NCBI GenBank assembly: GCA_051883455.1
Contig: JBJETT010000002.1
Coordinates: 12,584-76,583, forward strand
DNA length: 64,000 nt
Direction: 5' to 3'
From: Christensenellales bacterium
Lineage (GTDB): Bacteria; Bacillota; Clostridia; Christensenellales; UBA3700
Positions 13,765-60,730 of the stretch are shown one piece after another (position 1 is the first letter of the stretch; every line of letters begins with the position of its first letter). The notes beneath the pieces were generated by a model, which was not told the DNA's origin, searched no databases, and saw nothing but the letters and a program-made list of their open reading frames with translations. The position numbers and the translations under genes were made by a program.

Positions 13765-13778
13765 TCGATACGTGTCAA
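13765..13778 (+). repeat. Dispersed motif copy 1 (TCGATACGTGTCAA), 4 nt after a stop codon
   Basis: Exact match to TCGATACGTRT. Confidence 0.85.
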
Positions 13779-13779
13779 C

Positions 13780-13812
13780 AAAAATGCCGAACGTTAATCA
13801 TTCGGCATTTTT
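13780..13812. terminator. Bidirectional terminator
   Basis: aaaaatgccgaa...ttcggcattttt. Confidence 0.85.
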
Positions 13813-13829
13813 GTTTTGATAGACTTAAA

Positions 13830-14834
13830 CTATTCTAATTTTGACTGTTCTTGCTTGTCATTGGCTAGCGTTGCTTGCTCAGTTGTAGAGGCTTGCTCGC
13901 TAGTGGACGTTGCTTGTTCGGTTGCAGGATTTACGTGCACCAAGATATGTTTTATCTTAGGGAAGTTGCGTTCGATATCGTCGTGCACGGTTTCGGCAAT
14001 GCCGTGTGCTTGTTGCAAGGTATAAGAGCCGTCCACTTGTATCTCCAAGTCAACGTAGATTTTGTTGCCGAATATGCGAGTATGCAATAGGTCTATGCCC
14101 TTTACGTTTTCGTTTTTGACGACGCAATCGGCTATTTGCTTTTCCGTTTCTTCATCGCAAGAGCGGTCTATCATTTTGTCCATAGCGTCCTTGAAGATAT
14201 CAAAGGCGGCTTTGGCGATAAACAAGAAGATTACTAGGCTGGCGATAGAATCCATGATAGGGAAGCCGAGTCTTGCACCGGCGATACCTATCAAAGCGCC
14301 TATAGAAGAAAACATATCCGAACGGTGATGCCATGCGTCCGCCATAAGCGCGCTAGAGTCAATCTTCTTGGCGTAGTGTCTGGTATACCAATACATTGCT
14401 TCCTTGCTGACGATTGACACTATTGCGGCAACTAACGCCAAAACGCCCGGGGCTTGCAAGTCGTCGTAGTTGCCGCCCGCTATGTTTTTAACTGCCTCCG
14501 CGCCTATTCCCAGACCCGTTATAAAGAGCACCATAGCCAAGACTATTGCCGCTACGCATTCCATGCGCTCGTGCCCGTATGGGTGCTCCTTGTCGGGTTT
14601 TTTCGACGCCAACCTTATACCTATGATGACCACGAAAGTACTAAACACGTCGGATGCCGAATGTACGGCGTCACTTACCATAGCGCTAGAATGGGCAATA
14701 ATACCGGCAATAAGTTTGAGTGCGGATAGCACCATATTACCGATAATTGTCACTAGCGACACTTTGCCGGCGATTTTTTGGAATTGGACTTCGTCAATGC
14801 CGTCGACGTTAGTAAGCTTTTTGTTTTTCCTCAT
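13830..14834 (-). CDS. Cation diffusion facilitator (FieF/CzcD family) metal exporter
   Basis: SDAVHSASD, HPYGHER, DAWHHRSD motifs and C-terminal dimerisation domain; GGAGG RBS. Confidence 0.92.
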   Translation of the reverse strand: MRKNKKLTNVDGIDEVQFQKIAGKVSLVTIIGNMVLSALKLIAGIIAHSSAMVSDAVHSASDVFSTFVVIIGIRLASKKPDKEHPYGHERMECVAAIVLAMVLFITGLGIGAEAVKNIAGGNYDDLQAPGVLALVAAIVSIVSKEAMYWYTRHYAKKIDSSALMADAWHHRSDMFSSIGALIGIAGARLGFPIMDSIASLVIFLFIAKAAFDIFKDAMDKMIDRSCDEETEKQIADCVVKNENVKGIDLLHTRIFGNKIYVDLEIQVDGSYTLQQAHGIAETVHDDIERNFPKIKHILVHVNPATEQATSTSEQASTTEQATLANDKQEQSKLE

Positions 14835-14907
14835 ATACGTTACCTCCAAATAATAAGATAACTCTTATCACTTATTGAGGGCATTGGTTATAACTTCGAA
14901 AAAAGTA

Positions 14908-15022
14908 TAAAAAAACACCCACGAATCAGTAATAGCAACTACTGTCCCGTGGATGAAAATTCCACTGTCACTTATGCGACCCGACTCCATGATAATTACA
15001 CGGTCTGCTCAGTTTGTACTGT
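14908..15022 (-). promoter_or_regulatory. NiCo (czcD) riboswitch with overlapping intrinsic terminator
   Basis: Minus strand reads AGTACAAACTGAGCAGACC...GAGTCGGGTCGC-ATAA-GTGACAGTGGA...TCCACGGGACAGTAGT, matching the ACUGAGCAG...CGGG...GGGACAGU four-way-junction pattern; terminator hairpin plus T run follows; lies upstream of a CDF gene. Confidence 0.88.
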
Positions 15023-15237
15023 AGATTATATGCAGTGCAAAGAGTTTACTATATTATATGCTACGAGTTGGAGTTTGTCAAGTACCAAAAAACTTATGCG
15101 GATATATTGGTTGGGTATAGCGCTTTGCTTGACAAAATTTTTGGTATATAATATTATAGGAATATAAGAAAAAGGAGGAATTTGTCGAATACTTTTTGGT
15201 TTGACAAATTTTTTTATCTGTACCAAAGGAGCAGTAT

Positions 15238-16047
15238 ATGCAAAGAGAAGAAATTTGCAAAATAATCAGAGAAGACACTTGTAGGTGTATTGCTTCGATA
15301 GGTGTCGGACACATCGGCGGTTGTCTGTCTATCGTAGAAATTTTGGTCAGTTTGTATTACAAACACATGAATATCGACCCTACCAATCCTCACATGGCGG
15401 GTAGAGATAGATTGGTATGCTCTAAGGGACACGCAGGTCCTGCGGTGTACGCAACTCTTGCCAACAAAGGTTATTTTGACAAGTCGGAGCTCCTTACCCT
15501 CAACCACTCGGGCACCAATCTTCCTAGCCACTGCGATATGAACAAGACCATCGGTATAGATATGACCACCGGCTCATTGGGACAAGGATTTAGCTGTGCC
15601 GTAGGTATTGCTTTGGCAAGCAAGCTCGACAAGGACGGCGCTTATATCTACACCATTATCGGTGACGGTGAGAGCCAAGAAGGACAAATTTGGGAAGCGG
15701 GTATGTTCGCGGCTCAAGCCAAACTAGACAATCTCATTGCCTTTACCGATTACAACAAGATGCAGATAGATGGTAACACCGACGACGTCAACTCTTTGGA
15801 ACCTCTCAACAAGAAGTGGGAGAGCTTTGGTTGGAACGTGGTCGTCATCGACGGACACGACTTTGACCAAATCGACGACGCTATCGCTAACGCCAAGGCT
15901 TGCAAAGGCAGACCAACCATGATTATTGCCAACACTATCAAGGGCAAGGGCGTCAAGTATATCGAAGACAAGGGCTACGGCAACCACAGCATGCCAATGC
16001 TTTGGGAAGACGTCGAAAAATATATAGAAGAGATTAGGAGAGCGTAA
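15238..16047 (+). CDS. Transketolase, N-terminal (TPP-binding) subunit
   Basis: GHIGG, SKGHAGP, TTGSLGQG, GDGESQEG...N TPP motif. Confidence 0.93.
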   Translation: MQREEICKIIREDTCRCIASIGVGHIGGCLSIVEILVSLYYKHMNIDPTNPHMAGRDRLVCSKGHAGPAVYATLANKGYFDKSELLTLNHSGTNLPSHCDMNKTIGIDMTTGSLGQGFSCAVGIALASKLDKDGAYIYTIIGDGESQEGQIWEAGMFAAQAKLDNLIAFTDYNKMQIDGNTDDVNSLEPLNKKWESFGWNVVVIDGHDFDQIDDAIANAKACKGRPTMIIANTIKGKGVKYIEDKGYGNHSMPMLWEDVEKYIEEIRRA

Positions 16048-16048
16048 T

Positions 16049-16987: not shown

Positions 16988-17019
16988 GTAGGTCGTCTAT
17001 CTAAATCGAAAGAAATAAC

Positions 17020-17047
17020 AAAAAAGTAGGGTTGCCCTACTTTTTTT
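17020..17047 (+). terminator. Intrinsic terminator after transketolase genes
   Basis: aaaaaagtaggg-ttg-ccctactttttt. Confidence 0.8.
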
Positions 17048-18655: not shown

Positions 18656-18675
18656 TTGATACGTATCGAGTTTTT
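18656..18675 (-). repeat. Dispersed motif copy 2 (AAAAACTCGATACGTATCAA on minus strand)
   Basis: Exact match to TCGATACGTRT, intergenic. Confidence 0.85.
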
Positions 18676-25827: not shown

Positions 25828-26823
25828 ATGTTTATCAATAAAAAACTTATCGTGCTTAGCGGAGATACGACGGGATACGTCAAAATAGAAAGGTTGAGTG
25901 ACAAGTGCATTGCCAAAGCCAAAATCAACGGGGCTAAGGATGCACTAATCGGAATATTCGAAGGGGATAGATTGGCATATCTCGGTGATTGTGACAGCGT
26001 TGCTAATATAGAAGGAGTTGATATGGACGCCACGCTCACGGCTGTGGCTTTGTCGGAGGGTAGAATAATTGCCAAAGGTAGCGTCAACGGCAACGCACTT
26101 GGTCAGGCGCATATTCTTAGGGAGATAAATAATAGGGTGAGCAAGTACGATAATAGCCAAAAAGTCGATACGTATCCCCAAAAATCTCAACAACGGCAAT
26201 CTAACGTAGAGCAAAATAGCGATGCGATTAGAGCCCAAGAGCAAGTGCAAAATGACGAGAAAAAACGCAAAATCAATCGTCAAGAAATAATTCATGAAGA
26301 GCCTCACCGTATAGAAGAAAGAAAAGAGGCTCGGGAAGAAAAAGAAGAGTGCGACGAAACCTTAACGAGCGAGCAAGAGGTTGTAGAAGAGGTGCAACCT
26401 ACCATGCAAGCGAGTGAGGATAAGTTTGAACAAGAGCTAATAGCTAAGGGCGATACGTCAAACGACGTGAGCGAAAATACGGGAGAGGAGTATAAGCCTT
26501 CTACGGACTTTTATAACTCTATCAAAGACGAGCTCGACAAATTATTTGACACTTATCAAGCCGACGAAGAGTTGGAGAGCCTAATCGAAAACAGTAGGTG
26601 GGTGAGAGTGCCTACGGGAGAAGAGGGCTATTACGTTACGGGCATAATTTATTACGACGGCGTGCCACAAATAATATGTTACGGCGTGCCCGACAAGGAC
26701 AACTCCAATCCACCGCCTTGCAGCTCGAGTTGCAGACAATGGTTGCCTATTGTAGAAGACGGCAGAGGCTATTGGATGATGTATCAATCTGCTATCGACG
26801 GAGAATTCGTAGAGGAAAGTTAA
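25828..26823 (+). CDS. Hypothetical protein with acidic low-complexity linker and conserved-looking C-terminal domain
   Basis: AGGAGG RBS, 331 codons; C-terminus SRWVRV...ICYGVP...PP...GYWMMYQ. Confidence 0.8.
   Translation: MFINKKLIVLSGDTTGYVKIERLSDKCIAKAKINGAKDALIGIFEGDRLAYLGDCDSVANIEGVDMDATLTAVALSEGRIIAKGSVNGNALGQAHILREINNRVSKYDNSQKVDTYPQKSQQRQSNVEQNSDAIRAQEQVQNDEKKRKINRQEIIHEEPHRIEERKEAREEKEECDETLTSEQEVVEEVQPTMQASEDKFEQELIAKGDTSNDVSENTGEEYKPSTDFYNSIKDELDKLFDTYQADEELESLIENSRWVRVPTGEEGYYVTGIIYYDGVPQIICYGVPDKDNSNPPPCSSSCRQWLPIVEDGRGYWMMYQSAIDGEFVEES
26159..26176 (+). repeat. Dispersed motif copy 3 (AAAAAGTCGATACGTATC), inside a CDS
   Basis: Exact match to TCGATACGTRT; encodes KVDTY. Confidence 0.8.
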
Positions 26824-33559: not shown

Positions 33560-33580
33560 TAGACACGTATCGAGTTTTTT
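33560..33580 (-). repeat. Dispersed motif copy 4 (AAAAAACTCGATACGTGTCTA on minus strand)
   Basis: Exact match to TCGATACGTRT, intergenic. Confidence 0.85.
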
Positions 33581-33769: not shown

Positions 33770-34777
33770 ATGGCAAAACAAAAAAAGACAATGAAGATGA
33801 AGAAAATTTACATCGTATCAATGCTCGTAATATTGCTAGTTGCAATTTCGGCATTCTCTTTCGCAGGCTGCTCCAAAGCCGACTACACGGTAGGTATTAT
33901 TCAGCTCCTTCCACACGGTGCTTTGGACAAGGCTAACGAAGGTTTCCAGACGGAACTTACCAAACTTATGAAAGAAGTTGGTAAGACGGTCAAATTTGAC
34001 GACAACAACGCACAAGGCGACCAATCTAACAACGGTACCATTGCACAAAAGCTCGTCAATATGAACGTTGACCTTATCTATGCAATCGCAACTCCATCGG
34101 CTCAGGCTGCCGCAGTTGCAACTAGCAATATCCCTGTTATTTTCAACGCAGTAACCGATCCTGTCGACGCAGGACTCGTAAATAGTGCTACCAATCCTGG
34201 CAAAAACGTATCGGGTTGCAGCGATATGAACCCTATCGCAACGCAAGTTGCTCTGATGAAGGAGCTTGTTCCTACCGCGACTAAGTTCGGCGTGCTTTAC
34301 ACCGCTTCTGAGACCAACTCTCAAATTCAAGCAAATATGGTAGTAGAAGAAGCTAGAGCGCTTGGCGTAGAGACGATAGTTGAGACTATTCAAGACCTCA
34401 ACGATTTGTCAACTGCTCTTGGCAACCTCAAGAATAGAGGCGCACAATGCGTTTATATTCCTACCGACAACGTGCTCGCAGATGCGGCTCAATCGGTTCA
34501 CACTGCCAACACCACCGGCGGATACAATCTTCCTATCGTATGTGGAGAAGGCAGCATGAACGAATTGTGTGGCGTAGCGACCTACGGTCTTGACTACTAC
34601 GAGTTGGGCGTACAAGCTGCAAAGATGGCTTTTGAAGTACTTTACAATCAAGCAGATATTTCTACTATGCCTGTAAGATATCAAACGACCAACTTCACAC
34701 TTAGTGTAAACACCAATATTGCTCAAGCAATAGGCTTTACTATTCCTCAAAGCATCTTGGACGCTTACAACAACTAA
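33770..34777 (+). CDS. ABC transporter substrate-binding lipoprotein (TrpX/ABC_sub_bind type)
   Basis: Lipobox FAGC, HGALD, AIATPSAQ, AVTDPV, IPTDN. Confidence 0.88.
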   Translation: MAKQKKTMKMKKIYIVSMLVILLVAISAFSFAGCSKADYTVGIIQLLPHGALDKANEGFQTELTKLMKEVGKTVKFDDNNAQGDQSNNGTIAQKLVNMNVDLIYAIATPSAQAAAVATSNIPVIFNAVTDPVDAGLVNSATNPGKNVSGCSDMNPIATQVALMKELVPTATKFGVLYTASETNSQIQANMVVEEARALGVETIVETIQDLNDLSTALGNLKNRGAQCVYIPTDNVLADAAQSVHTANTTGGYNLPIVCGEGSMNELCGVATYGLDYYELGVQAAKMAFEVLYNQADISTMPVRYQTTNFTLSVNTNIAQAIGFTIPQSILDAYNN

Positions 34778-34798
34778 TAAGGATTAGCGACAAAACAA

Positions 34799-35797
34799 AT
34801 GGACGTAGTATTTAATATGTTTATCACGGGTACCGGATACGGTATCCTATGGGGAATAATGGCGCTTGGCGTTTACATTACCTACAGACTGCTCGACGTG
34901 GCGGATTTGACCGTAGAGGGAAGTTTCGCTACGGGTGGTGCGGTTGCCGCTATGCTCATTACGAAAGGAGGCATGTCGCCGATTTTGGCGTGTCTTATCG
35001 CTTTGATGGCGGGCGCTATTGCGGGAGCAGTAACGGGTTTGTTGATTACCAAGCTCCGCATTCCACCTATCTTGGCGGGCATTTTGACTATGACGGCTCT
35101 CTATTCCGTCAATTTGTTGATAATGGGCAGCAAGAGCTCGATTGCCATAATTGGACAGTCTATTTTCAAGTTAGGCGCTATTGATATGAAGTATAGCATT
35201 TTGCTTGTTGGGGTATTGTTGAGCGGTGTTATCATTGCGGGTAGCTATTGGTTCTTCGGTACCGAAGTCGGCAGTGCGATTCGTGCCACGGGTGCCAATG
35301 AAAAGATGTGCCGCGCACAAGGTATCAACACCGACAACACCAAGATTATCGGTCTTATGCTTTCCAATGCGCTCGTTGCATTTTCGGGTGCGCTTATCGC
35401 TCAATACCTTGGCACCGGCAACGTTACAATGGGTGTAGGCTCTATCGTCATAGGACTTGCTTCCGTCATCATAGGAGAGACGATAATATCGGCAAAGCAC
35501 AACTTCTTGTGGCGACTTATCAGTGTATTTTTGGGTAGCGTGATATACCGCGTCATCATTACGATAGTGTACTATATGGGACTTGGCACGGAATATATCA
35601 AGCTTCTCACGGCAGTGCTCGTAGTTATCGCACTATCCCTGCCTAATATCAAGGGCAAGTTCAAACGTAGCTCCAAGTCTAACAACTCCAAGCGTGTCAA
35701 AGAAGCGGTGGGCAATCCTACCGACGTGATTATGAACGACGAGGTAGCCAATCAAATAGTAGAGAACGCTGAAAAGGAGGGTGGTGAAAATGCTTAA
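34799..35797 (+). CDS. ABC transporter permease
   Basis: ADLTVEGSFATG, GTEVGSAIRATG, hydrophobic. Confidence 0.9.
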   Translation: MDVVFNMFITGTGYGILWGIMALGVYITYRLLDVADLTVEGSFATGGAVAAMLITKGGMSPILACLIALMAGAIAGAVTGLLITKLRIPPILAGILTMTALYSVNLLIMGSKSSIAIIGQSIFKLGAIDMKYSILLVGVLLSGVIIAGSYWFFGTEVGSAIRATGANEKMCRAQGINTDNTKIIGLMLSNALVAFSGALIAQYLGTGNVTMGVGSIVIGLASVIIGETIISAKHNFLWRLISVFLGSVIYRVIITIVYYMGLGTEYIKLLTAVLVVIALSLPNIKGKFKRSSKSNNSKRVKEAVGNPTDVIMNDEVANQIVENAEKEGGENA

Positions 35798-40423: not shown

Positions 40424-40424
40424 G

Positions 40425-41876: not shown

Positions 41877-42048
41877 GTCGGCTGTTTTGCAACTAAGCTA
41901 GTTATAGCCACGACACAACAATTCTACAACGCTATCCAAAAGGGTAGCGTCTTGTCATTTTCATAAGTCAGTTGTTTGACAGCTAGTATTTACGCAGTTT
42001 ATAATAGAGTAAAACAACCCGTTTACAAAAGTTTTGAAAAGGTGAAAT

Positions 42049-42993
42049 ATGTTCAAACTACAAAGATACGCTCAAACCGTTGCGCAGATTCCAAGTCTTG
42101 GCGACGTGGTAGATTATCTCAAAAAAAATCAAAAATGCACCATTGCAGATATCGTCGAGGCGACGGGCTTGTCGCACCCGACGGTAGCGCACGCATTGCG
42201 TCTAGCTCAAGAGGCGGACGTAGCAATTAAGAGGGAGATAGCCACTTCGTCGGGTGGTAGGAGAGCACAAATTTACGCACTCAATCCCGACTTTATACAC
42301 TATGCGTTGATAGTCGTAAAAGAAGATGGTGTTGTCTATCAAATTAGAGATTTTGAGGGCAAGGTATTATCTAATATTCAAAAGAAATGCGACAAAAACG
42401 ACTTTATCGTTGGACTTACGAGAATAGTCGAGAATATCAAGATAGAAGACGACTTGGTAGAGCTGTGCGCCATATCTTTGCCGTGCGTTGTCAACGGCAC
42501 TATGATAGAAGAATGGGCTAGGCTGGGACTTAGAAAGGTCAATATCGTCGAACAAATCGAAACCAAGACGGGCGTCAAGGTTCGTATCGAAAACGATATG
42601 AAGCTCTTATCGTTAGCGGGTTGTCACGAAGACGACCAAGAGGGAGAAATACACGTATCCTTGTACGTTGATAAAAGCTCCGTAGGCATTGGCGTAAGTA
42701 TAGACGGCAAAGTTTTCAAAGGCGCTAGCGGCTATGCCGGAGAAATCAAATATTGTCCTAATATGGGCGGTTTGGTTGGCGACAAGGCGGTAAGGGCAGC
42801 GCTCAACGCTATTGCTATGTACAATCCACATTCTATGACGGTATTTGCGCAAGACTCTGCCAAAGCGTCGGCATACGTCAACGCTATATCCAAGCGATTG
42901 CCCGAATATCTCGTTCCACGCTTCGTTATTTACGACGATTACGTAGTTGCCCAAACTCAAGCGTTGTGGGAATTGGTACGAGGCACACTATGA
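42049..42993 (+). CDS. ROK-family transcriptional regulator
   Basis: N-terminal HTH, SSGGR, IENDM, GYAGEI. Confidence 0.85.
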   Translation: MFKLQRYAQTVAQIPSLGDVVDYLKKNQKCTIADIVEATGLSHPTVAHALRLAQEADVAIKREIATSSGGRRAQIYALNPDFIHYALIVVKEDGVVYQIRDFEGKVLSNIQKKCDKNDFIVGLTRIVENIKIEDDLVELCAISLPCVVNGTMIEEWARLGLRKVNIVEQIETKTGVKVRIENDMKLLSLAGCHEDDQEGEIHVSLYVDKSSVGIGVSIDGKVFKGASGYAGEIKYCPNMGGLVGDKAVRAALNAIAMYNPHSMTVFAQDSAKASAYVNAISKRLPEYLVPRFVIYDDYVVAQTQALWELVRGTL

Positions 42994-43811
42994 AGTTCGA
43001 CAGATTTTTGTGCCCTGTATGCGGTAATACTCTCGTCTTAGAAGGTAGGACGTGCAAGTGTAGTAAGGGGCATTGTTTTGACGTAGCGAGAGAAAACTAC
43101 GTCAACCTCAATCTCAGCCAAAGGTCGGGAGAAAAAATCGGCGACAACAAGGAGATGATAGAGGCAAGGCGTAGATTTTTGGAGCTAGGTCACTATCAAC
43201 GGCTAGCTGACGAGCTAGCCGACCTAGTAGGTGAGTATTGCCCTAAGGGGGGAAGCGTGCTTGACCTTGGTTGTGGATACGGATATTATATCTGCCATAT
43301 TGCCAAAAGGTATGGCGAAAGCTATCGTTATCTAGCCACGGATATATCCAAAGAAGGAGTCAAAATAGGCGGAAAACTCGATACGTGTATTGATTTTTGC
43401 GTTGCCAACTCGTTCAATTTGCCACTTGCAGGTAGCAGTATCGACGTGCTTGTTTGTGTCTTTGCGCCTTACGCAATCGACGAAATATGTAGAGTGCTAA
43501 AAGAGGGTGGCGTTGCCATATTCGTCAGCCCCGCACCATATCATCTATGGGAACTAAAACAAGCAATATACGGTGACAAGGCGTATCCCAAGAGCTTTTC
43601 GGTAGACTTCCAACCACTCAAGAAGGTGCAGCGCGAAGAACTCGATTATATCTTCACATTGGACACTCATCAACAAATTGATAGTCTTTTGGCAATGACC
43701 CCGTATTATTATACGACGCCCAAAGACCTGCTTAATCGCTTAGAAAATGTAGAAAAAATACAAATTAGAGCAAATTTTGACATAACGGTAGTCAAAAAGT
43801 TGACAATTTGA
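42990..43811 (+). CDS. RlmA-like rRNA (guanine-N1) methyltransferase
   Basis: CPVC...CSKGHCFD zinc finger, LDLGCGYG, MTPY. Confidence 0.85.
   Translation: MKFDRFLCPVCGNTLVLEGRTCKCSKGHCFDVARENYVNLNLSQRSGEKIGDNKEMIEARRRFLELGHYQRLADELADLVGEYCPKGGSVLDLGCGYGYYICHIAKRYGESYRYLATDISKEGVKIGGKLDTCIDFCVANSFNLPLAGSSIDVLVCVFAPYAIDEICRVLKEGGVAIFVSPAPYHLWELKQAIYGDKAYPKSFSVDFQPLKKVQREELDYIFTLDTHQQIDSLLAMTPYYYTTPKDLLNRLENVEKIQIRANFDITVVKKLTI
43373..43390 (+). repeat. Dispersed motif copy 5 (AAAACTCGATACGTGTAT), inside a CDS
   Basis: Exact match to TCGATACGTRT; encodes KLDTC. Confidence 0.8.
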
Positions 43812-43862
43812 CATAAAATATTATAATTATTGTCAGTTAGTTATTAATTTGGAGGTACAAAT

Positions 43863-44186
43863 ATGGAAGATAAAGTATGTTGCGTAACTTTTTACGTAGA
43901 CAACAAGACCGATAAGGACGTTGATTGCGTATACATCTGTGGCAATCATCCTAAGCTTGGCAATTGGAATCCTGCTAAAGCGCTCAAAGTAAAGAAGGAC
44001 AACGGCATTTTTAGAATCGTTAGAAGATTTGATGAAGGAACTACTTTGGAATACAAAGTACTTTGCAAGCCTAATTGGGAAGGCGTGGACAAAGGAATGT
44101 GGGGCGAAGAAATCGTCAACCACACCGTAGTCGTTGAGAGCGCAACAAAGAGTCCCGTTACCGTATACAACTGGCGTCAAAACTAA
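43863..44186 (+). CDS. Stand-alone CBM20 starch-binding protein
   Basis: VYICGNHPKLGNWNPAKAL, LEYKV, NWEG match the CBM20 pattern; 107 aa; GGAGG RBS. Confidence 0.8.
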   Translation: MEDKVCCVTFYVDNKTDKDVDCVYICGNHPKLGNWNPAKALKVKKDNGIFRIVRRFDEGTTLEYKVLCKPNWEGVDKGMWGEEIVNHTVVVESATKSPVTVYNWRQN

Positions 44187-44210
44187 TAGGGGTTAGACCA
44201 ATCAACAAGC

Positions 44211-44245
44211 AATACGTCTCGTCAATCGACGGGCCGTATTTTTTT
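44211..44245 (+). terminator. Intrinsic terminator
   Basis: aatacg..cgtc/gacg..cgtatt plus T run. Confidence 0.6.
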
Positions 44246-44332
44246 GTGGGAAGTACAAACCGCTTCAAAATAGGGTATTGTCAACTATTTTTATTTATGT
44301 TATAATAATTAAAATATAACGTGGAGAGAGTT

Positions 44333-45976
44333 ATGCTAGAAAACTATTATTTACATATCAGATACAAGGACGGACGAGAAGTCAAAACCGCCACGATGAG
44401 CAACGACGATTTTACGCTCAATTACGTCAAAAACAACGCCTGTCTTACTCTGAATATCAAGGTAAACATTCCTATCGAGATAGACAAGGTTTGGCTTGAG
44501 ATGGAATATGATTTTGCGCCCGGCGACAGGTTTTTTGCCAACGGCTACCAGTCTTGGACCGACAGCAGAGAGTTTACTTGCAACCAAAGAATGGCTGACC
44601 AAGGCTTGCTCAACAAGACGCCAATCGGCAAGATGTTAGGTATGATCAATTACGGCGACTACACGTGGGTTGAACAACCTAAGAAGAAAGGGCAATTCCA
44701 CTCTCACGGATACGCTTACGTTCGCAGAGGCGACGAGATAGATTTCGTAGGCTCTCTCAGCGACAAGGACGGCTACACCGTTATTCAAGCAGATATGAAT
44801 GCCAACCGTATACGCATATACAAGGACGTGGAGGGCGTATTGATTGACAATACCTACACGCTATTTAGTCTCATATCACTCAAGGGCGAGTACAACGAAG
44901 TCTTTGACAAATACTTTGCAATGATGGGCATACCGAGACCAATGTATCCCGTCATCAAAGGATATACTACTTGGTACAATTATTATCAAAATATTAGCGA
45001 GAGCATCGTGCTCAACGACCTCGAAAGCATTGCTTCCACGGGGCTTATCAACACCTTCCAAATCGACGACGGCTATCAGACCAAGGTAGGCGAATGGAAG
45101 AGTATCGACACGGTCAAATTCCCTAACGGTCTTGACGGCATTGTCAAGGCTATACACGCCAAGGGCTTGCAAGCAGGCTTGTGGATGGCGCCGTTTGGCG
45201 TTCAAAAGAACTCACAATTAGTGGAGCAACATCCCGACTGGTTTGTCAAAGGCGCAGACGGTAAAAAGATAGTCTGTGGTGCCAACTGGGGCGGATTTTA
45301 CGCTTTGGATATTTACAACAAAGAGGTTAGAGCGTATATCAAAGATTGCTTTGCTTATTACTGCAATATGGGCTTTGACCTATTCAAACTCGACTTTTTG
45401 TATTGCGCTGCTATGGTGCCTAATTACAACAAATCTAGAGCAACTATCATGTACGACGCGATTACTTTGATTAGAGAATGTGTGGGCGACAGAAAGATAC
45501 TCGGTTGCGGAACTCCGCTTATGCCATGCTTTGGCAGAGTGGAATATATGAGAATAGGCGCCGATATGGGGCTTAGTTGGAAAGAGGGCTTTATCCAAAA
45601 GATATCTCATCGTGAGGACGTGTCGAGTCAAGGAGCGGTATATAATATCTTGTATCGCAGACACCTCAACAAGAGGGCGTTTATGTGCGATCCCGACGTC
45701 TTCACTATTAGGGATTACAACGTCAAGTTTACCCCTTCGCAACAACAGCTTCTTGCCACTATCATCAAGATATTCGGCTCGGTTTTGTTTACCAGCGACG
45801 ACGTGGGCAGATACGACGACACTCAAAAGAAACTCTTTGCCGAGGTGATGAGCGAGTGCGAGATATGGGTAGAAGACGTCACCCAAATAGGCAACGAGGT
45901 CACCGTCAAATATAGCGTAGACGGCGACGATAGAGTACTTAAATTTGATATGAAAAACTGCCAAAAATTATCCTAA
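44333..45976 (+). CDS. Alpha-galactosidase-like glycoside hydrolase (GH36 family)
   Basis: TTWYNY, FQIDDGYQ, GLWMAPF, FKLDFLY, RIGAD. Confidence 0.85.
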   Translation: MLENYYLHIRYKDGREVKTATMSNDDFTLNYVKNNACLTLNIKVNIPIEIDKVWLEMEYDFAPGDRFFANGYQSWTDSREFTCNQRMADQGLLNKTPIGKMLGMINYGDYTWVEQPKKKGQFHSHGYAYVRRGDEIDFVGSLSDKDGYTVIQADMNANRIRIYKDVEGVLIDNTYTLFSLISLKGEYNEVFDKYFAMMGIPRPMYPVIKGYTTWYNYYQNISESIVLNDLESIASTGLINTFQIDDGYQTKVGEWKSIDTVKFPNGLDGIVKAIHAKGLQAGLWMAPFGVQKNSQLVEQHPDWFVKGADGKKIVCGANWGGFYALDIYNKEVRAYIKDCFAYYCNMGFDLFKLDFLYCAAMVPNYNKSRATIMYDAITLIRECVGDRKILGCGTPLMPCFGRVEYMRIGADMGLSWKEGFIQKISHREDVSSQGAVYNILYRRHLNKRAFMCDPDVFTIRDYNVKFTPSQQQLLATIIKIFGSVLFTSDDVGRYDDTQKKLFAEVMSECEIWVEDVTQIGNEVTVKYSVDGDDRVLKFDMKNCQKLS

Positions 45977-46034
45977 GCAACTATTACAATAATTGCACCG
46001 CCACGAGGCGGTGCACATCGATAAATTTACAGCT

Positions 46035-49000
46035 ATGAATTGTACACAATCTATCAACAACCAACGTATTAGTGGCATATTGATGCCGATTTCCGCATTG
46101 CCGTCGCCTTACGCAATAGGTACTTTTGGCGAGTCGGCATACCGATTTATAGATTTTTTAGTAGACGCGGGTCAAAGCGTCTGGCAAGTACTACCGCTCG
46201 TGCCGACGGGTATGGGTGGCTCTCCCTATCAATCAATCAGCGCACAGGCTATCGACGTCAACTATATTGACCTAGAGGCTTTGCGAGAGCAAGGCTTGTT
46301 GACTTCTAAGCACTTGCAAGAGTTGAGAGCTATCAACGGAGAGCGGGTAGATTACGATAGACTTACCCCAATCAAGCTTCGACTTTTGCGCACAGCCTAC
46401 GACAAATATGAGCCAACCCAAGATTATCTCGATTGGGTCAATGGCAAGAGCTTTTTGAACTACGCAGTGTTTATGGCTCTCAAAGAGCAAGACGAAGCGC
46501 CTTGGTACGAGTGGCAATGCTATCGTATTTTTAACGAAACAGAGATAGAGCGTTACGCCGAGCAAAACGCCTACGAAGTGGGATTTTATCTTTGGACGCA
46601 ATGGGTAGCACATGAGCAATGGCTCAAGTTGAGAAGCTACGCTAATTCCAAGGGCGTCAAGATAATGGGCGATATGCCTATTTACGTTGCCTTGGACAGC
46701 GTAGAGGTATGGAGCCAACCGCAAAATTTCCAATTAGACGACAATTTCGTTCCCAAAGCCGTAGCGGGCGTTCCACCCGATTATTTTTGCGAAGAAGGAC
46801 AACTATGGGGCAATCCTCTATACGATTGGGACAAGATGAAAGAGGACGGCTTTGCGTGGTGGAACAAGCGTATCGCTCAGGCATTTGAGCTGTACGACGT
46901 GGTGCGTATCGACCATTTTAGAGCTATGGACAGATACTACAGCGTGCCTTATGGGGCAAAGAACGCCATAGACGGCGAGTGGAAACAAGGCGTCGGCTTC
47001 GATTTGTTTGCCGACAAGCTGGGGCTCGACATAGTTGCCGAGGACTTGGGACTTATCGACGACGGCGTAAGACAGCTTTTGTCCAAGACGGGCTATTGCG
47101 GTATGAGAGTGGTTCAGTTCGGCATGGACGGCGACGTGGACAGCGACAACAGACCAAGCAACTATCCTCGCAAGAGCATAGCCTATACGGGCACGCACGA
47201 CAACGCGACCTTGATGCAATTTATTTGTCAAAGTGACAAGGCGAGGTTGTCGCAACTCAAGCGTAGCATCAAGGACGAGTGTTCGTTGATGGATATACCG
47301 TGCCAATGCGATAGTGCCAAGGATATTGCCGACACTCTCATAAGGTTGGTTTATGCAAGTAGGTCCAACGTAGCTATCGTACCTTTTGCCGATTGGCTGT
47401 ATCTTGGCGACGAGGGTAGAGTCAACACCCCGGGCACTGTGTCCAACCTCAACTGGAGCTGTCGTATAGACTTCCCTAGCGACAAAGAACTAGGCAAGAT
47501 TGCCAAGAATATCAAAAAGATAACTCGCCTTTTCGATAGAACGGGCAAGGTAGACAGACCACCAAAGACCAAGTTTGATTTGGGCGTCAACGTAAGTGGA
47601 AAAGCCACAACCTTTGCCGTTTGGTCACCGCCTACCAATTACGCCAAGGTCAAGATTTTTGACACGGCTTTTGACTCAAACCTTATAGCCGCCTACGATA
47701 TGACCAAGGACGGAGACGTCTTCCGTTGTACGGTAGCTCAAGACTTGACGGGCAAATTTTACGCCTACGAGATAGACGGCAAAGAGTGCGTAGACCCTTA
47801 CGCCCGAGCAGTCGGCGTCAACGGATGTCGAGCAATGATAGTCGATCTTTCTCGTACCGATCCCGACGGTTGGGAGCAAGACAAATATCACGGCAACGCA
47901 ACCCCGATAATATGGGAAGTGCATATAAGAGATTTTAGCATTAGTATGCCCGATACCTTTGAAGTTAGAGGCAGATACGGCGGTTTTGCTACGGGATACA
48001 AGACTATTTGTGGCAAGGCGTGTCTTGTCGATTATCTCAAGCAGTTGGGTGTGACATACGTTCAACTTTTGCCTATCGCCGACTTTGAGAGTGTGGACGA
48101 GAGAGAATTTTGGCAACGCAACTGGGGCTACGACCCGTGCAACTTCAACGTGCCGGAGGGCTCTTACAGTTCCAACCCTTACGACCCTGAGACAAGGATA
48201 CGAGAACTCAAACAACTAGTCTTGACCTTGCACGACAATGGCATAGGAGTAATTGCCGACGTGGTGTACAATCATACCTATCGCACCGAGGACTCCAACC
48301 TTGAGGCAGTAGCTAAAGATTGCTATTATCGCAAGTTCGCCGATGGTAAATTCTTCAACGGCTCGGGGTGTGGCAACGAGATTGCCACCGAGAAGCCTAT
48401 GGTGCGTCAGTTTATCATAGATTCGCTCACTTATTGGGTAGAAGAATACCATATCGACGGCTTTAGATTTGACCTTATGGGACTGTACGATATCGACACC
48501 GTCGTTGCAATACGAAGTAAGCTTGACGAATTGGAAGCTAAGCTTGGCAAGAGCATATTGACTTACGGTGAGCCGTGGTGGGCTTTGCCACCTGCTCCTT
48601 GGATAGTGCCTGCCGATACGTCCAACCTTGCACTACTTCCCGACAAGGTGGGAGTGTTCAACTCTTCGTATCGTGACGGACTTAGGGGCGACAATCATTT
48701 ATCGCGAGGATTTTTGCAAGGAATGGCAGTATCTTTGAGTGCCGTTATGAGCGGAATAGAAGGGGCGAGCGATAAGCGTGACGGAGTCGTCTTTAAGCTC
48801 AATAGCCCAAGCCAAAACGTATGCTATATGTCGGCGCACGACAACTACGCACTCTACGACCAGCTCAAAGCCACTATGCCTAACGAGAGAGAAATCAAGA
48901 TAGCCACCAAGTTCGGCGCGTTTTTCGTTATGAGTTCTTTGGGGCTTGCCTTTATGCAAGCGGGCGAAGAGTTTTGTCGTACCAAGCAAATGAACGACAA

Positions 49001-49376
49001 TAGCTACAACGCGGGCGACGATATCAACGCTTTGGATTGGAATAGAAAGGACGCCTATTGCGATATATCCGACTACTACCAAGGGCTTATCCGTATCCGA
49101 AGACACAACCCTGTATTCCGCAATCTATCTACGGCAAAAGAGCACTTCGAGTGGCTTGCCGTGCGTTCGGCGTGGGGAGCACTTGCCTACCGTATAGGCG
49201 ACTATATCTATATTGCCAATCCTACCGACGGCGACGCTTACGTGGATTTGACGAGGTTTGGACAATTAGAGAGACTGGCAGATATAGATACTGCCAATCT
49301 CTATTGCATAGACAAGCTTAGCGGCGATATCAAAATCCCTGCCAAAAACCTAGCCATTTTGCGCAAGATAGACTAA
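46035..49376 (+). CDS. Fused 4-alpha-glucanotransferase (GH77, MalQ) and type I pullulanase (CBM48-GH13)
   Basis: GH77: WQVLPL, RIDHFR, AEDLG, GTHDN; GH13: NWGYDP, DVVYNH, GFRFDLM, YGEPW, SAHDN; one uninterrupted ORF. Confidence 0.9.
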   Translation: MNCTQSINNQRISGILMPISALPSPYAIGTFGESAYRFIDFLVDAGQSVWQVLPLVPTGMGGSPYQSISAQAIDVNYIDLEALREQGLLTSKHLQELRAINGERVDYDRLTPIKLRLLRTAYDKYEPTQDYLDWVNGKSFLNYAVFMALKEQDEAPWYEWQCYRIFNETEIERYAEQNAYEVGFYLWTQWVAHEQWLKLRSYANSKGVKIMGDMPIYVALDSVEVWSQPQNFQLDDNFVPKAVAGVPPDYFCEEGQLWGNPLYDWDKMKEDGFAWWNKRIAQAFELYDVVRIDHFRAMDRYYSVPYGAKNAIDGEWKQGVGFDLFADKLGLDIVAEDLGLIDDGVRQLLSKTGYCGMRVVQFGMDGDVDSDNRPSNYPRKSIAYTGTHDNATLMQFICQSDKARLSQLKRSIKDECSLMDIPCQCDSAKDIADTLIRLVYASRSNVAIVPFADWLYLGDEGRVNTPGTVSNLNWSCRIDFPSDKELGKIAKNIKKITRLFDRTGKVDRPPKTKFDLGVNVSGKATTFAVWSPPTNYAKVKIFDTAFDSNLIAAYDMTKDGDVFRCTVAQDLTGKFYAYEIDGKECVDPYARAVGVNGCRAMIVDLSRTDPDGWEQDKYHGNATPIIWEVHIRDFSISMPDTFEVRGRYGGFATGYKTICGKACLVDYLKQLGVTYVQLLPIADFESVDEREFWQRNWGYDPCNFNVPEGSYSSNPYDPETRIRELKQLVLTLHDNGIGVIADVVYNHTYRTEDSNLEAVAKDCYYRKFADGKFFNGSGCGNEIATEKPMVRQFIIDSLTYWVEEYHIDGFRFDLMGLYDIDTVVAIRSKLDELEAKLGKSILTYGEPWWALPPAPWIVPADTSNLALLPDKVGVFNSSYRDGLRGDNHLSRGFLQGMAVSLSAVMSGIEGASDKRDGVVFKLNSPSQNVCYMSAHDNYALYDQLKATMPNEREIKIATKFGAFFVMSSLGLAFMQAGEEFCRTKQMNDNSYNAGDDINALDWNRKDAYCDISDYYQGLIRIRRHNPVFRNLSTAKEHFEWLAVRSAWGALAYRIGDYIYIANPTDGDAYVDLTRFGQLERLADIDTANLYCIDKLSGDIKIPAKNLAILRKID

Positions 49377-49381
49377 ATAAG

Positions 49382-49395
49382 TCGATACGTGTCGA
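49382..49395 (+). repeat. Dispersed motif copy 6 (TCGATACGTGTCGA), 5 nt after a stop codon
   Basis: Full 14-bp near-palindrome. Confidence 0.85.
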
Positions 49396-53278: not shown

Positions 53279-53734
53279 ATGCAAGACGAGAAGCGAAAAA
53301 TTAGCAGACTAAAGGCGTTGATAATTAAAGAGCAAAAGCTACTACTCGACCTTATTGCCACTACGGCAAGAGCCGACAAGAAGGGGGTCGCTCAAACGGC
53401 GGACACTCCCGATTTTTTGGACTACAACGCGTTGCTTGCTCGGCAGTTGCAACTACTGTCTCGTCTTTTTAATCAGCAAACGAAAAAGCAAAGCATAATC
53501 GCGCTTTGCCAAAAAGAAAAGGCAAAAAACTCGATACGTGTCGACAATTTGGACGTCGAGCAGGACGGTATACAAGACGATATCGTTGAGCCGTCGCCTA
53601 ATCCGCCAATTAGCCGATACGACGATAGCATTGACGAACATGAGTATTGCCAAGTCGACGAAGTTAAAGCACAATCGGATAGCGAGGTAGAGCAATCACA
53701 ATCCCTTGACCAATCTCAGCCAAATATACGATAG
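53279..53734 (+). CDS. Hypothetical protein (helical N-terminus, acidic C-terminus)
   Basis: G-rich RBS before ATG 53279, followed by a strong hairpin. Confidence 0.6.
   Translation: MQDEKRKISRLKALIIKEQKLLLDLIATTARADKKGVAQTADTPDFLDYNALLARQLQLLSRLFNQQTKKQSIIALCQKEKAKNSIRVDNLDVEQDGIQDDIVEPSPNPPISRYDDSIDEHEYCQVDEVKAQSDSEVEQSQSLDQSQPNIR
53524..53544 (+). repeat. Dispersed motif copy 7 (AAAAAACTCGATACGTGTCGA), inside an ORF
   Basis: Full 14-bp near-palindrome. Confidence 0.85.
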
Positions 53735-57339: not shown

Positions 57340-57360
57340 TACTACGGTATAGCAATTATT

Positions 57361-57463: not shown

Positions 57464-59209
57464 ATGTTCGAGATCAAAGGCAACGATTTTTTGCTTGATG
57501 GCAAAAAGTACAATATCTATTCGGGAGCAATGCACTACTTCCGCATCCCACACGAGTATTGGGAAGATAGACTCACCAAACTAAAGCTTGCGGGCTTCAA
57601 CACGGTAGAGACCTACGTGTGTTGGAATTTGCACGAACCTAAGAAGGGAGAATTTTGCTTTGAGGGCGACCTCGATATAGCCGAGTACATAGCCATAGCG
57701 GGCAAGCTCGGGCTCAACGTCATCGTTAGGCCGGGACCATATATATGTGCCGAATGGGAAGCGGGCGGTTTCCCTGCTTGGCTATTCAAGGACAAAAATA
57801 TTGATTTGAGATGCTTCTGTCCCGAGTACCTCGCCCACGTCAAAGATTATTACACCAAACTTATGAGCATACTCGTGCCTTTGCAATGCACCAAAGGCGG
57901 CAATATCATCGCCATGCAGATTGAGAATGAGTACGGCAGCTTCGGCAACGACAAACGCTACCTCGCCTATATGCGCGATATGATGCAAGAGTTGGGCGTT
58001 GACGTACTGACCTTTACTTCCGACGGAGATTGGTGCAACATGCTCTCGTCGGGCACGCTGGAAGGTACTTTCAAGACCCTCAACTTCGGTAGCAACGTCA
58101 GCGGAAGAATGAAAGCGCTTGATAGATATCCCGACAACGGACCTAAGATGTGTATGGAATTTTGGTGCGGTTGGTTCGACCATTGGGGCGAAAGGCACCA
58201 TACTCGCAATCACAAGTCTATTATCAAAGAGCTCAACACTTTCTTCGACATTGGTGCTTCCTTCAACTTTTATATGTTCCACGGCGGTACCAATTTCGGT
58301 TTCAATGCGGGCGCCAATCATTTCAGCACGTATCAACCTACCGTGACTAGCTACGACTATTGCGCGCTTCTCAACGAATACGGCGACTATACCCCCGCAT
58401 ACCACGCGGTGAGGGAATTATTGTGCAGTAGACAGGGTATAGAACTCAAACCTTTGCCACCGTCAGTACGCCTTCAAAATATCGGCGAGGTCAAACTCAC
58501 CGAGTGCACGGGCTTGTTCGAAAACTTTGACAATATCGGTACCAAACACCATAGCGGTGCGGCAAAACACATGGAATATTACGACCAAAATTACGGACTT
58601 ATCTATTACAAGACCGTGAAGAAGGGCAAGTATACTATGGGCAATTTGTCTATAGAAGGATTGCACGACAGAGCGCACGTCTATATAGATGGACAACTCA
58701 AAGGCATCTGCGACGTAACGGGCAAAGCCCCTCGCAAACATAGACGCAATTCCTTCATGGTTTCGGGATTTGACGGCGAGAGAGAGATAGGCGTTTTGGT
58801 CGAGGCAATGGGCAGAGTCAATTACGGCAACCATATCAACGACCGCAAGGGTATATCGGGACTTTTGCTTGGACCTCATAATATTTTCGATTACGAAGTG
58901 ACGACGCTTCCACTTGACAATATCGACAAACTGGATTGGAGTCTTGGCGCAGAAAAGTATCCAAAATTCTTCAAGGCGCAGTTTGACGCGTCGAGCAATG
59001 CCGATTGTTTCGTTGATATGAAGGGCTTTGGTAAGGGCTACGTATGGGTCAACGGACACAACCTCGGTAGATATTGGAATATAGGACCGCAAAGGTCGTT
59101 GTACTTGCCGGGCGTATGGCTAAAAGAAAAGGACAACGAGATAATCGTGCTCGAACTTGACGGCAACAAGACGGATAGCGTAGCTATCACGGACAAGCAT
59201 TATCTCTAA
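57464..59209 (+). CDS. Beta-galactosidase, GH35
   Basis: SGAMHYFR, RPGPYICAEW, QIENEYG, MEFWCGWFDHWG, YMFHGGTNFG. Confidence 0.93.
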   Translation: MFEIKGNDFLLDGKKYNIYSGAMHYFRIPHEYWEDRLTKLKLAGFNTVETYVCWNLHEPKKGEFCFEGDLDIAEYIAIAGKLGLNVIVRPGPYICAEWEAGGFPAWLFKDKNIDLRCFCPEYLAHVKDYYTKLMSILVPLQCTKGGNIIAMQIENEYGSFGNDKRYLAYMRDMMQELGVDVLTFTSDGDWCNMLSSGTLEGTFKTLNFGSNVSGRMKALDRYPDNGPKMCMEFWCGWFDHWGERHHTRNHKSIIKELNTFFDIGASFNFYMFHGGTNFGFNAGANHFSTYQPTVTSYDYCALLNEYGDYTPAYHAVRELLCSRQGIELKPLPPSVRLQNIGEVKLTECTGLFENFDNIGTKHHSGAAKHMEYYDQNYGLIYYKTVKKGKYTMGNLSIEGLHDRAHVYIDGQLKGICDVTGKAPRKHRRNSFMVSGFDGEREIGVLVEAMGRVNYGNHINDRKGISGLLLGPHNIFDYEVTTLPLDNIDKLDWSLGAEKYPKFFKAQFDASSNADCFVDMKGFGKGYVWVNGHNLGRYWNIGPQRSLYLPGVWLKEKDNEIIVLELDGNKTDSVAITDKHYL

Positions 59210-59299
59210 TGCGACTTTTGACGATATAGTCTAGTACTCAATCACACTCAACGACATTCGCCGATTATTCGGCTAAGAATAACAAATAGGAGGCTTATT

Positions 59300-60448
59300 A
59301 TGGCAAACAGAATAGTTCTCAACGAACAATCATACCATGGCGCAGGCTCAAGAGCAGAACTTGCGTCCATAGTCAAGGGCAAGGGCTTTACCAAGGCTTT
59401 CGTTTGCTCCGACAAAGCGACTTTCAACGTAGGCGTTACTTCCAAAGTGACCGAAGTTTTGGACAAGGCGGGACTTGCTTATACCGTACATACGGACATC
59501 GTGCCTAACCCACCAATCGAAAACGTGCTTGACGGTGTCAAGGCGTTCAAAGAGAGTGGCGCGGACTACCTACTTGCAGTAGGCGGTGGCTCGTCTATCG
59601 ACACGGCTAAGGCTATCGGTATCATCGTAGCCAATCCCGAGTTTGGTGACGTTAGAAGTTTGGAAGGCGTTGCACCTACCAAAAATCCTAGCGTGCCTAT
59701 CATTGCCGTTCCTACCACGGCAGGTACCGCTGCAGAAGTAACTATCAACTACGTTATCACCGACAGACAAAAACAACGCAAATTCGTATGCGTAGACGTA
59801 CACGATATCCCTGTCGTTGCAATCATCGACTCCGAGCTTATGTCCACCATGCCTAAGGGCTTGACGGCTGCTACGGGTATGGACGCATTGACCCACGCTA
59901 TCGAGGGCTACACTACCAAGGGCGCTTGGGAAATGACGGATATGTTCCACCTCAAAGCTATCGAAATCATCTCTCGTTCGCTTCGTGGCGCTGTTGCAGG
60001 CACCAAGGAAGGCAGAGAGGGTATGGCGCTCGGTCAATATATCGCGGGTATGGGCTTTAGCAACGTAGGACTTGGTATCGTTCACTCTATGGCTCACGCT
60101 TTGGGCGCAGTTTACGACACGCCACACGGCGTCGGCAACGCGATTTTGTTGCCAACCGTTATGGCTTACAACGCCGAGGCTACGGGCGAAAAGTATAGAG
60201 AAATCGCACGTGCTATGGGCGTTGAGGGCGTAGACGATATGACCCAAGAAGAGTATCGCAAGGCAGCCGTAGATGCGGTAAGACAACTCTCTATCGACGT
60301 TGGCATTCCTCAAGACCTCAAAGCAATCGTCAAAGAAGAAGATATTGACTTCCTCGCTCAATCGGCTATGGACGACGCTTGCAGACCGGGCAATCCAAAA
60401 GACCCAACGAAGGAAGATATCATAGCTCTCTACAAGAGTTTGCTATAA
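59300..60448 (+). CDS. fucO: Lactaldehyde reductase (Fe-dependent alcohol dehydrogenase)
   Basis: MANRIVLN N-terminus, GGGSSID, PTTAGT, DALTHAIE, HSMAH, PHG. Confidence 0.9.
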   Translation: MANRIVLNEQSYHGAGSRAELASIVKGKGFTKAFVCSDKATFNVGVTSKVTEVLDKAGLAYTVHTDIVPNPPIENVLDGVKAFKESGADYLLAVGGGSSIDTAKAIGIIVANPEFGDVRSLEGVAPTKNPSVPIIAVPTTAGTAAEVTINYVITDRQKQRKFVCVDVHDIPVVAIIDSELMSTMPKGLTAATGMDALTHAIEGYTTKGAWEMTDMFHLKAIEIISRSLRGAVAGTKEGREGMALGQYIAGMGFSNVGLGIVHSMAHALGAVYDTPHGVGNAILLPTVMAYNAEATGEKYREIARAMGVEGVDDMTQEEYRKAAVDAVRQLSIDVGIPQDLKAIVKEEDIDFLAQSAMDDACRPGNPKDPTKEDIIALYKSLL

Positions 60449-60546
60449 TAGTCCGAAAGTGGAAATAAGTAGAACGGTACTATTACTATAGCAAGGACAC
60501 GTCAAAATTTTGGCTTTCCGAGCAATAGCAAAACCGTAACGACAAA

Positions 60547-60576
60547 ACGGGCAGATACTTAGTGGTATCTGCCCGT
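60547..60576. terminator. Strong hairpin between convergent genes
   Basis: acgggcagatac/gtatctgcccgt, A run on the 5' side. Confidence 0.6.
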
Positions 60577-60587
60577 ACTAATCTATA

Positions 60588-60730
60588 ACGCGATATATCG
60601 CTACGCAATGCGAAATATTTATTATAATAAATGCGATATATACTTCACTTCGCTCGTATGAGATATGATATAAATTCCGTCAGGAACTTATATCGTTTCG
60701 ATGTAATCGAACGACACGTATCGACTTTTT
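60588..60730. repeat. Array of GCGATAT-like units with short hairpins, ending in dispersed motif copy 8
   Basis: GCGATATAT 60590 and 60633, GCGAAATAT 60610, GAGATATGATATA 60660, TTATATCG 60688. Confidence 0.5.
60711..60730 (-). repeat. Dispersed motif copy 8 (AAAAAGTCGATACGTGTCGT on minus strand)
   Basis: Exact match to TCGATACGTRT; overlaps the end of the small ORF. Confidence 0.85.

Follow-up and report, generated by a model that had tools for sequence, protein, structure and literature searches.

Eight exact copies of a short DNA word, TCGATACGTRT, are dispersed through a 64-kb stretch (64,000 nt, hereafter the window) of contig JBJETT010000002.1, from the Christensenellales bacterium assembly GCA_051883455.1. 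The word is real, clade-wide and over-represented, and reflects neither chance nor base composition. By analogy with the DNA uptake sequences (DUS) of Neisseriaceae and the uptake signal sequences (USS) of Pasteurellaceae, we tentatively favor its interpretation as a self-recognition word that would be upheld by recombination-coupled drive.

The copies start at 13765, 26165, 43378, 49382 and 53531 on the forward strand and at 18659, 33563 and 60714 on the reverse strand (five and three, respectively), and all eight of the matches listed in the original prediction were recovered. That prediction had set the count against ~0.06 copies expected under uniform base usage, uncorrected for the TCGA/CG content of the sequence, and the excess holds against richer backgrounds: dinucleotide-preserving shuffles (n = 100) contain a mean of 0.03 copies, with none of the 100 reaching eight, and Markov models (order 1–5) fitted to the window, motif copies included, expect 0.03–0.10 copies of the form with G at position 10 of the core and 0.04–0.25 copies of the form with A. 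The excess over shuffles and Markov models is therefore 30- to 250-fold, and the word is the most repeated of all 11-mers and 12-mers in the window. A compositional origin could draw on the mild over-representation of TCGA and ACGT (observed/expected 1.27 and 1.25), but the count of eight is not due to this richness, since the Markov models expect at most 0.25 copies; moreover, orthologous places in independent assemblies carry the word. A polar signal of the Chi or FtsK orienting polar sequence (KOPS) type, typically a strand-skewed 5–8-mer, is incompatible with a word of at least 12 bp that occurs in both orientations and has palindromic forms, as the original prediction had also argued. Chance, composition and polar signals are thus effectively refuted. 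The window contains only two 11-mers that differ from the word by one mismatch, both without an A-tract and in a number close to chance, so that in this genome copies are exact or absent; there is no cloud of decayed copies in the window. Copy density is approximately 1 per 7–8 kb in the unbiased window and 1 per 5–10 kb in unbiased related loci. The seven inter-copy spacings range from 4.1 to 9.8 kb (coefficient of variation 0.28), more even than if copies had been placed at random (P = 0.0014) or at randomly chosen gene ends (P = 0.0025), with the caveat that no copy lies in the first 13.7 kb.

The copies, with their preceding tract and core, are as follows:

Copy 1, 13759..13776, + strand: gATAAA-TCGATACGTGTC, in a convergent spacer that belongs to an imported cassette; its core begins 4 nt past the TGA of a low-molecular-weight (LMW) phosphatase gene (13242-13760), upstream of a strong terminator hairpin (~13780-13814).
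Copy 2, 18658..18675, − strand: AAAAAC-TCGATACGTATC, flanked by the terminator hairpins of two convergent genes, purC (+) and an F420-ligase-like gene (−).
Copy 3, 26159..26176, + strand: AAAAAG-TCGATACGTATC, on the sense strand of the gene for a 331-aa unknown protein, encoding KVDTY in a poorly conserved linker.
Copy 4, 33562..33579, − strand: AAAAAC-TCGATACGTGTC, in the spacer that follows the [FeFe] hydrogenase gene and precedes an ABC transporter operon.
Copy 5, 43372..43389, + strand: GAAAAC-TCGATACGTGTA, on the sense strand of an rlmA-like 23S rRNA methyltransferase gene, encoding KLDTC.
Copy 6, 49376..49393, + strand: AATAAG-TCGATACGTGTC(GA), in a convergent spacer upstream of a terminator; the core starts 5 nt past the TAA of the fused 4-alpha-glucanotransferase/pullulanase gene.
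Copy 7, 53525..53542, + strand: AAAAAC-TCGATACGTGTC(GA), on the sense strand of the gene for a 167-aa unknown protein, encoding NSIRVD in a low-complexity stretch.
Copy 8, 60713..60730, − strand: TAAAAAG-TCGATACGTGTC, intergenic, with the TAA of a possible 77-aa open reading frame (ORF) inside the A-tract.

Aligned on the motif strand, the eight copies give AAAA(A)-(C/G)-TCGATACGT(G/A)TC. An A run plus C or G had been noted upstream of most copies, and AAAA(C/G) directly precedes seven of the eight. Position 10 of the core is G in six copies and A in two, and position 12 is C in seven of eight, while positions 13–14, which would complete a palindrome, are free. The copies at 49382 and 53531 do extend to the near-palindrome TCGATACGTGTCGA, as originally described, and none of the eight is a perfect palindrome. 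The alignment thus describes an oriented unit, consisting of a 5′ A-tract, C or G, TCGATACGTRTC, and then a second A/T-rich tract that begins ~15 nt past the core start. Judging from the position table, the two tracts would lie ~21 bp apart, centre to centre, and so be phased by two helical turns. The information content of the unit is ~34 bits (small-sample-corrected), and 14 bits would suffice to locate eight sites in 128 kb of two-strand sequence; such an excess, 2.4 times the need, is typical of driven or descended words and not of ordinary operators. Together with the unrelated functions of the neighboring genes and the position of most sites at gene 3′ ends, this supports the earlier rejection of a regulon. 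Specific regulatory sites were likewise rejected on consensus or spacing and because most sites lie outside promoters: the Spo0A box (TGTCGAA), extracytoplasmic function (ECF)-sigma promoters, LacI/GntR-type operators, the catabolite-responsive element (cre) and the LexA box.

In relatives, the asymmetric G form reads AAAAAS-TCGATACGTGTC(GAC)-AAWWTT. A second, frequent form is a 14-bp perfect palindrome, TCGATACGTATCGA, which amounts to the 12-mer on both strands, overlapping, and is bordered on each side by C or G and a run of 4–6 A or T. The runs that flank these palindromes are inverted (A...T) and direct (T...T) about equally often, and therefore DNA bending fits them better than base pairing. 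With A...T flanks the palindrome folds at −13.3 kcal/mol and resembles a bidirectional terminator; this palindromic, A/T-flanked form is the only one with the G+C-rich hairpin and U-tract of an intrinsic terminator. The asymmetric window copies fold no better than shuffles (z −0.6 and −0.3) and adjoin separate terminators, which argues that sequence and not structure is conserved. The conserved unit is thus the oriented 12-mer with its 5′ A-tract, rather than a dyad.

The placement of the copies follows gene ends. Five of the eight are intergenic, although non-coding sequence makes up only 9.7% of the window, and three of the eight fall in convergent spacers, of which there are seven, totaling 714 bp or 1.1% of the window. 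The core starts 4–5 nt past a stop codon in copies 1, 6 and 8; copies 1 and 6 are each followed directly by a separate, strong terminator hairpin, and copy 2 has one on either side. The remaining three copies are inside ORFs and occupy two reading frames (core start at codon position 2 in two copies and at position 1 in one), in agreement with the original prediction. They sit in a variable linker, a low-complexity tail and a moderately conserved part of RlmA, and compared with relatives they change amino acids without changing protein length. Of ~60 sites in relatives, ~70% are intergenic, mostly at gene 3′ ends and often 3–15 nt from a stop codon, with few in divergent promoter regions, although these figures come from crude gene calls on loci picked for having the motif and are indicative only. 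Enrichment in terminators and permissive regions, with the two-strand forms in terminators, is what is seen for words of the DUS and USS type.

Several copies lie between a stop codon and a terminator, those up to 15 nt from a stop codon mostly point the same way as the gene upstream, and the coding copies are mostly on the sense strand. This could point to an element acting at the RNA level in 3′ untranslated regions and coding sequence, such as a site recognized by an RNase or RNA-binding protein, the target of a small RNA, or a hairpin serving as a weak terminator or stabilizer. The sense bias of the coding copies is sufficiently explained, however, by a 2.7-fold excess of A5 over T5 on sense strands. 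In addition, copy 2 (between two terminators) and copy 4 (antisense to both neighboring genes) are both conserved, the asymmetric copies have no stable fold, and Rfam, searched at gathering thresholds with the window and with eight motif-bearing loci, has no family at the motif, the one match being a NiCo riboswitch elsewhere. We therefore regard an RNA-level role as improbable.

The window carries the housekeeping genes of an anaerobe, including those for NrdD, a group A6 [FeFe] hydrogenase, MetG, FtsH and the fused MalQ-pullulanase, and is identical to a Logan metagenome contig. A scan with AAAASTCGATACGTRTC, covering one genome per species, returned many blocks from few metagenome-assembled genomes (MAGs), namely CALGRX01, CAMBZZ01, JBJETR01, JBJETQ01 and CAMFVQ01, which are labelled Christensenellales or uncultured Clostridia and are syntenic with the window at 82–93% nucleotide identity; elsewhere in the scan there were only single, chance-level matches. 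The occurrence of the 17-mer in Enterococcus and Anoxybacillus (L077, L096, L100 and L030) was dismissed as a coding coincidence, encoding KVDTYR beside the GGQ of release-factor genes. A phage-borne word was also rejected: a scan of viral contigs gave 25 single matches, about as many as chance would give, and no contig with several copies.

Loci that had not been selected for the motif were obtained through homologues of the pullulanase and MetG. In L115 (pullulanase 94% identical), all three sites in range are kept, with a G/A switch at position 10 in two of them, and in five strains at ~92% nucleotide identity (L146-L150) both sites in range are kept in all five with no extra sites; among these six close relatives we found no insertion polymorphism of the unit. 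Copy 2 is kept in three MAG species and in five of five unbiased close relatives, and is exact although the neighboring bases and the length of its spacer vary. Copy 3 is likewise kept in close relatives, copy 4 is conserved in CAMBZZ (L006), copy 6 has the A form in L115, and copy 7 is a full palindrome there.

More distant relatives show turnover at the same places. In JBJETQ (L116 and L143, ~75–80% identity), 44 kb of unselected sequence contains no exact copy, and every orthologous place examined has a variant that differs by 1–3 bases without an indel: TCAATACGTGT in rlmA and past the pullulanase stop codon, CAGATACATATCGA in the 167-aa ORF, TCGATACTTATC and TCGATACATATA at the places of copies 2 and 3, respectively, and, in the spacer past the hydrogenase gene, the palindromic one-off TCGATATGTATCGA. 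The place of copy 6 reads TCAATACGTGTC in L116 and carries a dialect word on the opposite strand, over the stop codon, in L117; that of copy 5 reads TCAATAC at the same codons in L116 and L117, with Asn for Asp. Indel-free variants in place thus occur at the orthologues of copies 2–7 in L116, L117, L143 and L144, with the direction of gain or loss ambiguous; in rlmA, a single A-to-G difference (Asn to Asp) sets the motif form apart from both outgroups. The changes in JBJETQ fall mostly at the two CpGs (TCGA to TCAA; ACGT to ACAT, ATGT or ACTT), which could be due to CpG-specific hypermutation, perhaps through cytosine methylation, or to relaxed maintenance. Lower-GC relatives (CAMFVQ L117 and L044, metagenome contig L106, and L144) have GAAAAC-TCGATACATRTC at 1 per 4–22 kb. 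This ACAT form, which was revealed by an RlmA-protein metagenome scan that returned only distant relatives (at most 56% identity), occupies the place of copy 3 in L143 and L144. All six non-palindromic copies of it have ACAT, and none ATGT, on the motif strand, which argues for a real dialect over random CpG decay. The word is absent from the outgroup locus L145 (MetG 76% identical, GC 38%). Copies are therefore stable at the species level and turn over by substitution at the genus level, with the consensus shifted between lineages.

Such turnover bears on a second alternative, in which the word is a repetitive extragenic palindromic (REP)-like or miniature palindromic element, or a copied 'terminator cassette', that was spread in the past by an HUH/tyrosine transposase resembling the REP-associated tyrosine transposases (RAYT), or by gene conversion, and is today an inactive, vertically inherited relic. 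The word resembles REP elements and REP doublets forming hairpins (REPIN), including the CGTC-tagged REPs (neisserial dRS3), in having a palindromic unit of 20–30 bp at extragenic 3′ ends and in convergent spacers, with variants that differ by lineage, are species-specific and are vertically stable; the palindrome with A/T flanks folds stably, about half of the palindromic copies have direct T-tracts on both sides that are readable as a target duplication, and REPs within genes are known (PMC3733652). On the other hand, most window copies are asymmetric and, although exact, have no hairpin potential, whereas a stable hairpin would be expected in every copy of such an element. Three of the eight window copies are in genes, where they add no length and relatives differ by substitutions; gains and losses are by substitution, with no clean insertions in L115 and L146-L150 and substitutions only in L116 and L143. 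A GTAG or CGTC tag is missing from the consensus, the copies are single, with neither dimers nor clusters among them, and no RAYT came to light; locally, only housekeeping genes and no transposase lie between or beside close copies. Furthermore, a survey of REPs makes no mention of Firmicutes (PMC3733652). We consider an origin of this kind unlikely.

The strongest rival is an array of sites for an abundant intracellular DNA-binding protein, which we judge less probable than a self-recognition word and more probable than a REP-like element. Candidates for this role would include nucleoid-associated and domain-boundary proteins, an anchor for topoisomerase or gyrase as at REP and bacterial interspersed mosaic elements (BIME), and a 3′-end transcription roadblock, with the A/T tracts aiding wrapping or bending. 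An array is suggested by the near-palindromic core, by A/T tracts in either orientation on both sides with ~21-bp phasing, by the even spacing, and by sites that keep their position across species at 92% identity, one of them inside a variable spacer; convergent spacers would also be where supercoiling stress accumulates. The core resembles parS (ParB), the Noc-binding site (NBS), the SlmA-binding site (SBS), matS (MatP) and ram (RacA) in being a dispersed, exact, dyad-type sequence of 12–16 bp with a central CG or ACGT. Those organization sites, unlike the window word, number ~10–70 per genome and are regional, symmetric and not tied to gene ends, whereas the window word is oriented, approximately ten times denser (a density that suggests hundreds per genome) and at 3′ ends. 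The array is further weakened by information that is 2.4 times the locating need, by the conservation of an oriented 12-mer and not a dyad (with no perfect palindrome among the eight), and by individual sites not being kept in JBJETQ at ~80% identity. A dialect change at many sites is also hard to reach by per-site selection, and no known protein family has this site.

A self-recognition word that resembles DUS and USS would account for these features as follows. The oriented unit AAAAA-(C/G)-TCGATACGT(G/A)TC would be read on double-stranded DNA by a putative sequence-specific protein, for which a competence-pilus or ComEA-associated protein is a candidate; the unit and the second A/T tract ~21 bp away would form a bendable site of ~30 bp, of which the palindrome TCGATACGTATCGA would be a compact presentation on both strands. 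DNA bearing the word would be preferentially bound and taken up, or otherwise favored, in exchange between relatives, and recombination would spread and keep the word where it is tolerated, that is, directly past stop codons, next to terminators in convergent spacers, and where coding sequence is poorly conserved. A shift in the preference of the reader would be followed by the sites, giving rise to dialects. We infer all three elements of this scheme, namely the protein reader, the uptake or recombination process, and drive over per-site selection.

The original prediction had left three options, an organization site, an uptake-like signal, and the end or target of a small mobile repeat. The uptake-like option fits best because of the exactness of the copies, their two orientations, their terminators and palindromic forms, the permissive coding copies, the dialects and the even spacing; the other two options have been weakened. 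In Neisseriaceae, the DUS is a 12-mer (ATGCCGTCTGAA, with dialects) that the minor pilin ComP reads; in Pasteurellaceae, the USS is AAGTGCGGT or ACAAGCGGT with phased AT tracts, comparable to the phased A/T tracts that flank the window word. In common with both, the word is short, exact and oriented, occurs in strong excess in both orientations with 3′-end and terminator enrichment and fairly even spacing, has two-strand forms that resemble bidirectional terminators, and turns over by point mutation at fixed places into lineage dialects, with coding copies in permissive stretches. About half of DUS and USS are in predicted terminators, as are >90% of inverted pairs, and these words accumulate in intergenic and poorly conserved coding regions and show dialects (bioRxiv 10.1101/2025.10.24.684340; PMC3630211). 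Unlike their inverted pairs, the two-strand form described here is an overlapping palindrome and not two separated copies; the host also differs, being a Gram-positive-type member of the Clostridia. HIP1 of cyanobacteria (GCGATCGC) is similar in being a clade-wide palindromic word, strongly over-represented and quasi-regularly distributed, whose function is unsettled (bioRxiv 10.64898/2026.06.24.733823), but it differs from the window word in being 8 bp, far denser, symmetric and methyltransferase-linked, without A/T flanks or gene-end bias.

Several points weigh against a self-recognition word. Its density is 5–10 times below that of known DUS and USS genomes (~1 per kb; hundreds to thousands of copies), and we know of no sequence-specific DNA uptake in Gram-positive bacteria, nor did literature searches bring up a case. 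Most of the relatives' copies were found by a search that required the motif, so that their statistics are biased. Positional stability and CpG-centred decay would also be expected of a selected binding site or a passive old element. Sliding identity profiles gave no general link between identity tracts and copies beyond the tract around copy 5. Prepilin signal motifs were absent from 580 kb of clade sequence, a sample too small to be informative.

Four cases resemble exchange; they are anecdotal, fitting exchange between relatives and proving nothing. Copy 1 lies in an imported cassette of ~1.4 kb (window 13699-15150) that comprises a new LMW phosphatase 3′ end, copy 1, the terminator, a cation diffusion facilitator (CDF) gene and a NiCo riboswitch. 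The CDF (CzcD-like) transporter is encoded on the minus strand and is 49% identical to the CDF of relatives at another locus; the riboswitch, also on the minus strand, is at 14940-15022 (RF02683, 68.5 bits); and 15085-15150 retains a degenerate piece of the phosphatase gene's original 3′ end. Relatives are without the cassette and have their own CDF gene between the desulfoferrodoxin and purC genes, which the window does not have. Copy 5 is near the center of a ~5-kb tract (window 41900-46900) that is ~98% identical to L115 against a background of ~88%, and that likely reflects recent homologous recombination. At copy 4, identity to CAMBZZ (L006) is 93–95% at 32.0–33.5 kb, 81% in the 500-bp bin with the copy, and 62–72% at 34.0–35.5 kb, and at copy 8 the homology of CALGRX (L074) stops just past the core. 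The low-identity segment downstream of copy 4 (window 34000-35500) encodes TrpX-like ABC transporter substrate-binding and permease proteins and appears as a divergent allele, with flanks at 93–95%, that starts ~0.5–1 kb downstream of the copy.

Other observations in the window concern its composition and gene content. Several 4-base palindromes are strongly avoided (observed/expected: GGCC 0.10, GATC 0.11, TTAA 0.20, CATG 0.28, CCGG 0.30), which suggests that several restriction systems have acted in the past; the only palindromes used in the motif, TCGA and ACGT, are not avoided. The gene that precedes copy 6 (45993-49376) encodes a single 1127-aa protein in which a 4-alpha-glucanotransferase (MalQ, GH77) is fused to a type I pullulanase, and this fusion is conserved in the clade, with homologues that are 94%, 77% and 64% identical. 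A repeat of TATTATAATA (19952, 25695, 36673 and 60620; four occurrences, or eight on two strands) is palindromic, but its copies look like ordinary −10 promoter elements in AT-rich intergenic sequence.

The word is, as far as we have searched, undescribed in the literature for this clade: searches on uptake sequences or REPs in Firmicutes, Clostridia and Christensenellales gave no description of it, and a full-text search for the sequence gave only unrelated primer matches. As a kind, a dispersed, driven or recognized genomic word is known, and it is the host group and the anatomy that are new. To our knowledge, sequence-biased DNA uptake is confined to two proteobacterial families, in which it shapes gene flow, species borders and genetic tractability. 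It is possible, if rather doubtful, that the tag AAAAAS-TCGATACGTRTC, every ~7 kb, with its sister dialect TCGATACATRTC, is the first sequence-specific signal for uptake or recombination of self-DNA outside the Proteobacteria. If so, there would be self-biased genetic exchange in the gut microbiome among abundant uncultured Clostridia, the word would give a handle on a new kind of DNA receptor in monoderm bacteria, and adding it to donor DNA might aid transformation of these organisms. Should the word mark the binding array of a chromosomal protein at gene ends instead, it would point to a new layer of chromosome or transcription-unit organization in Clostridia. Under either reading, the word provides a clean clade marker, of use in binning these genomes and in detecting foreign DNA in them.

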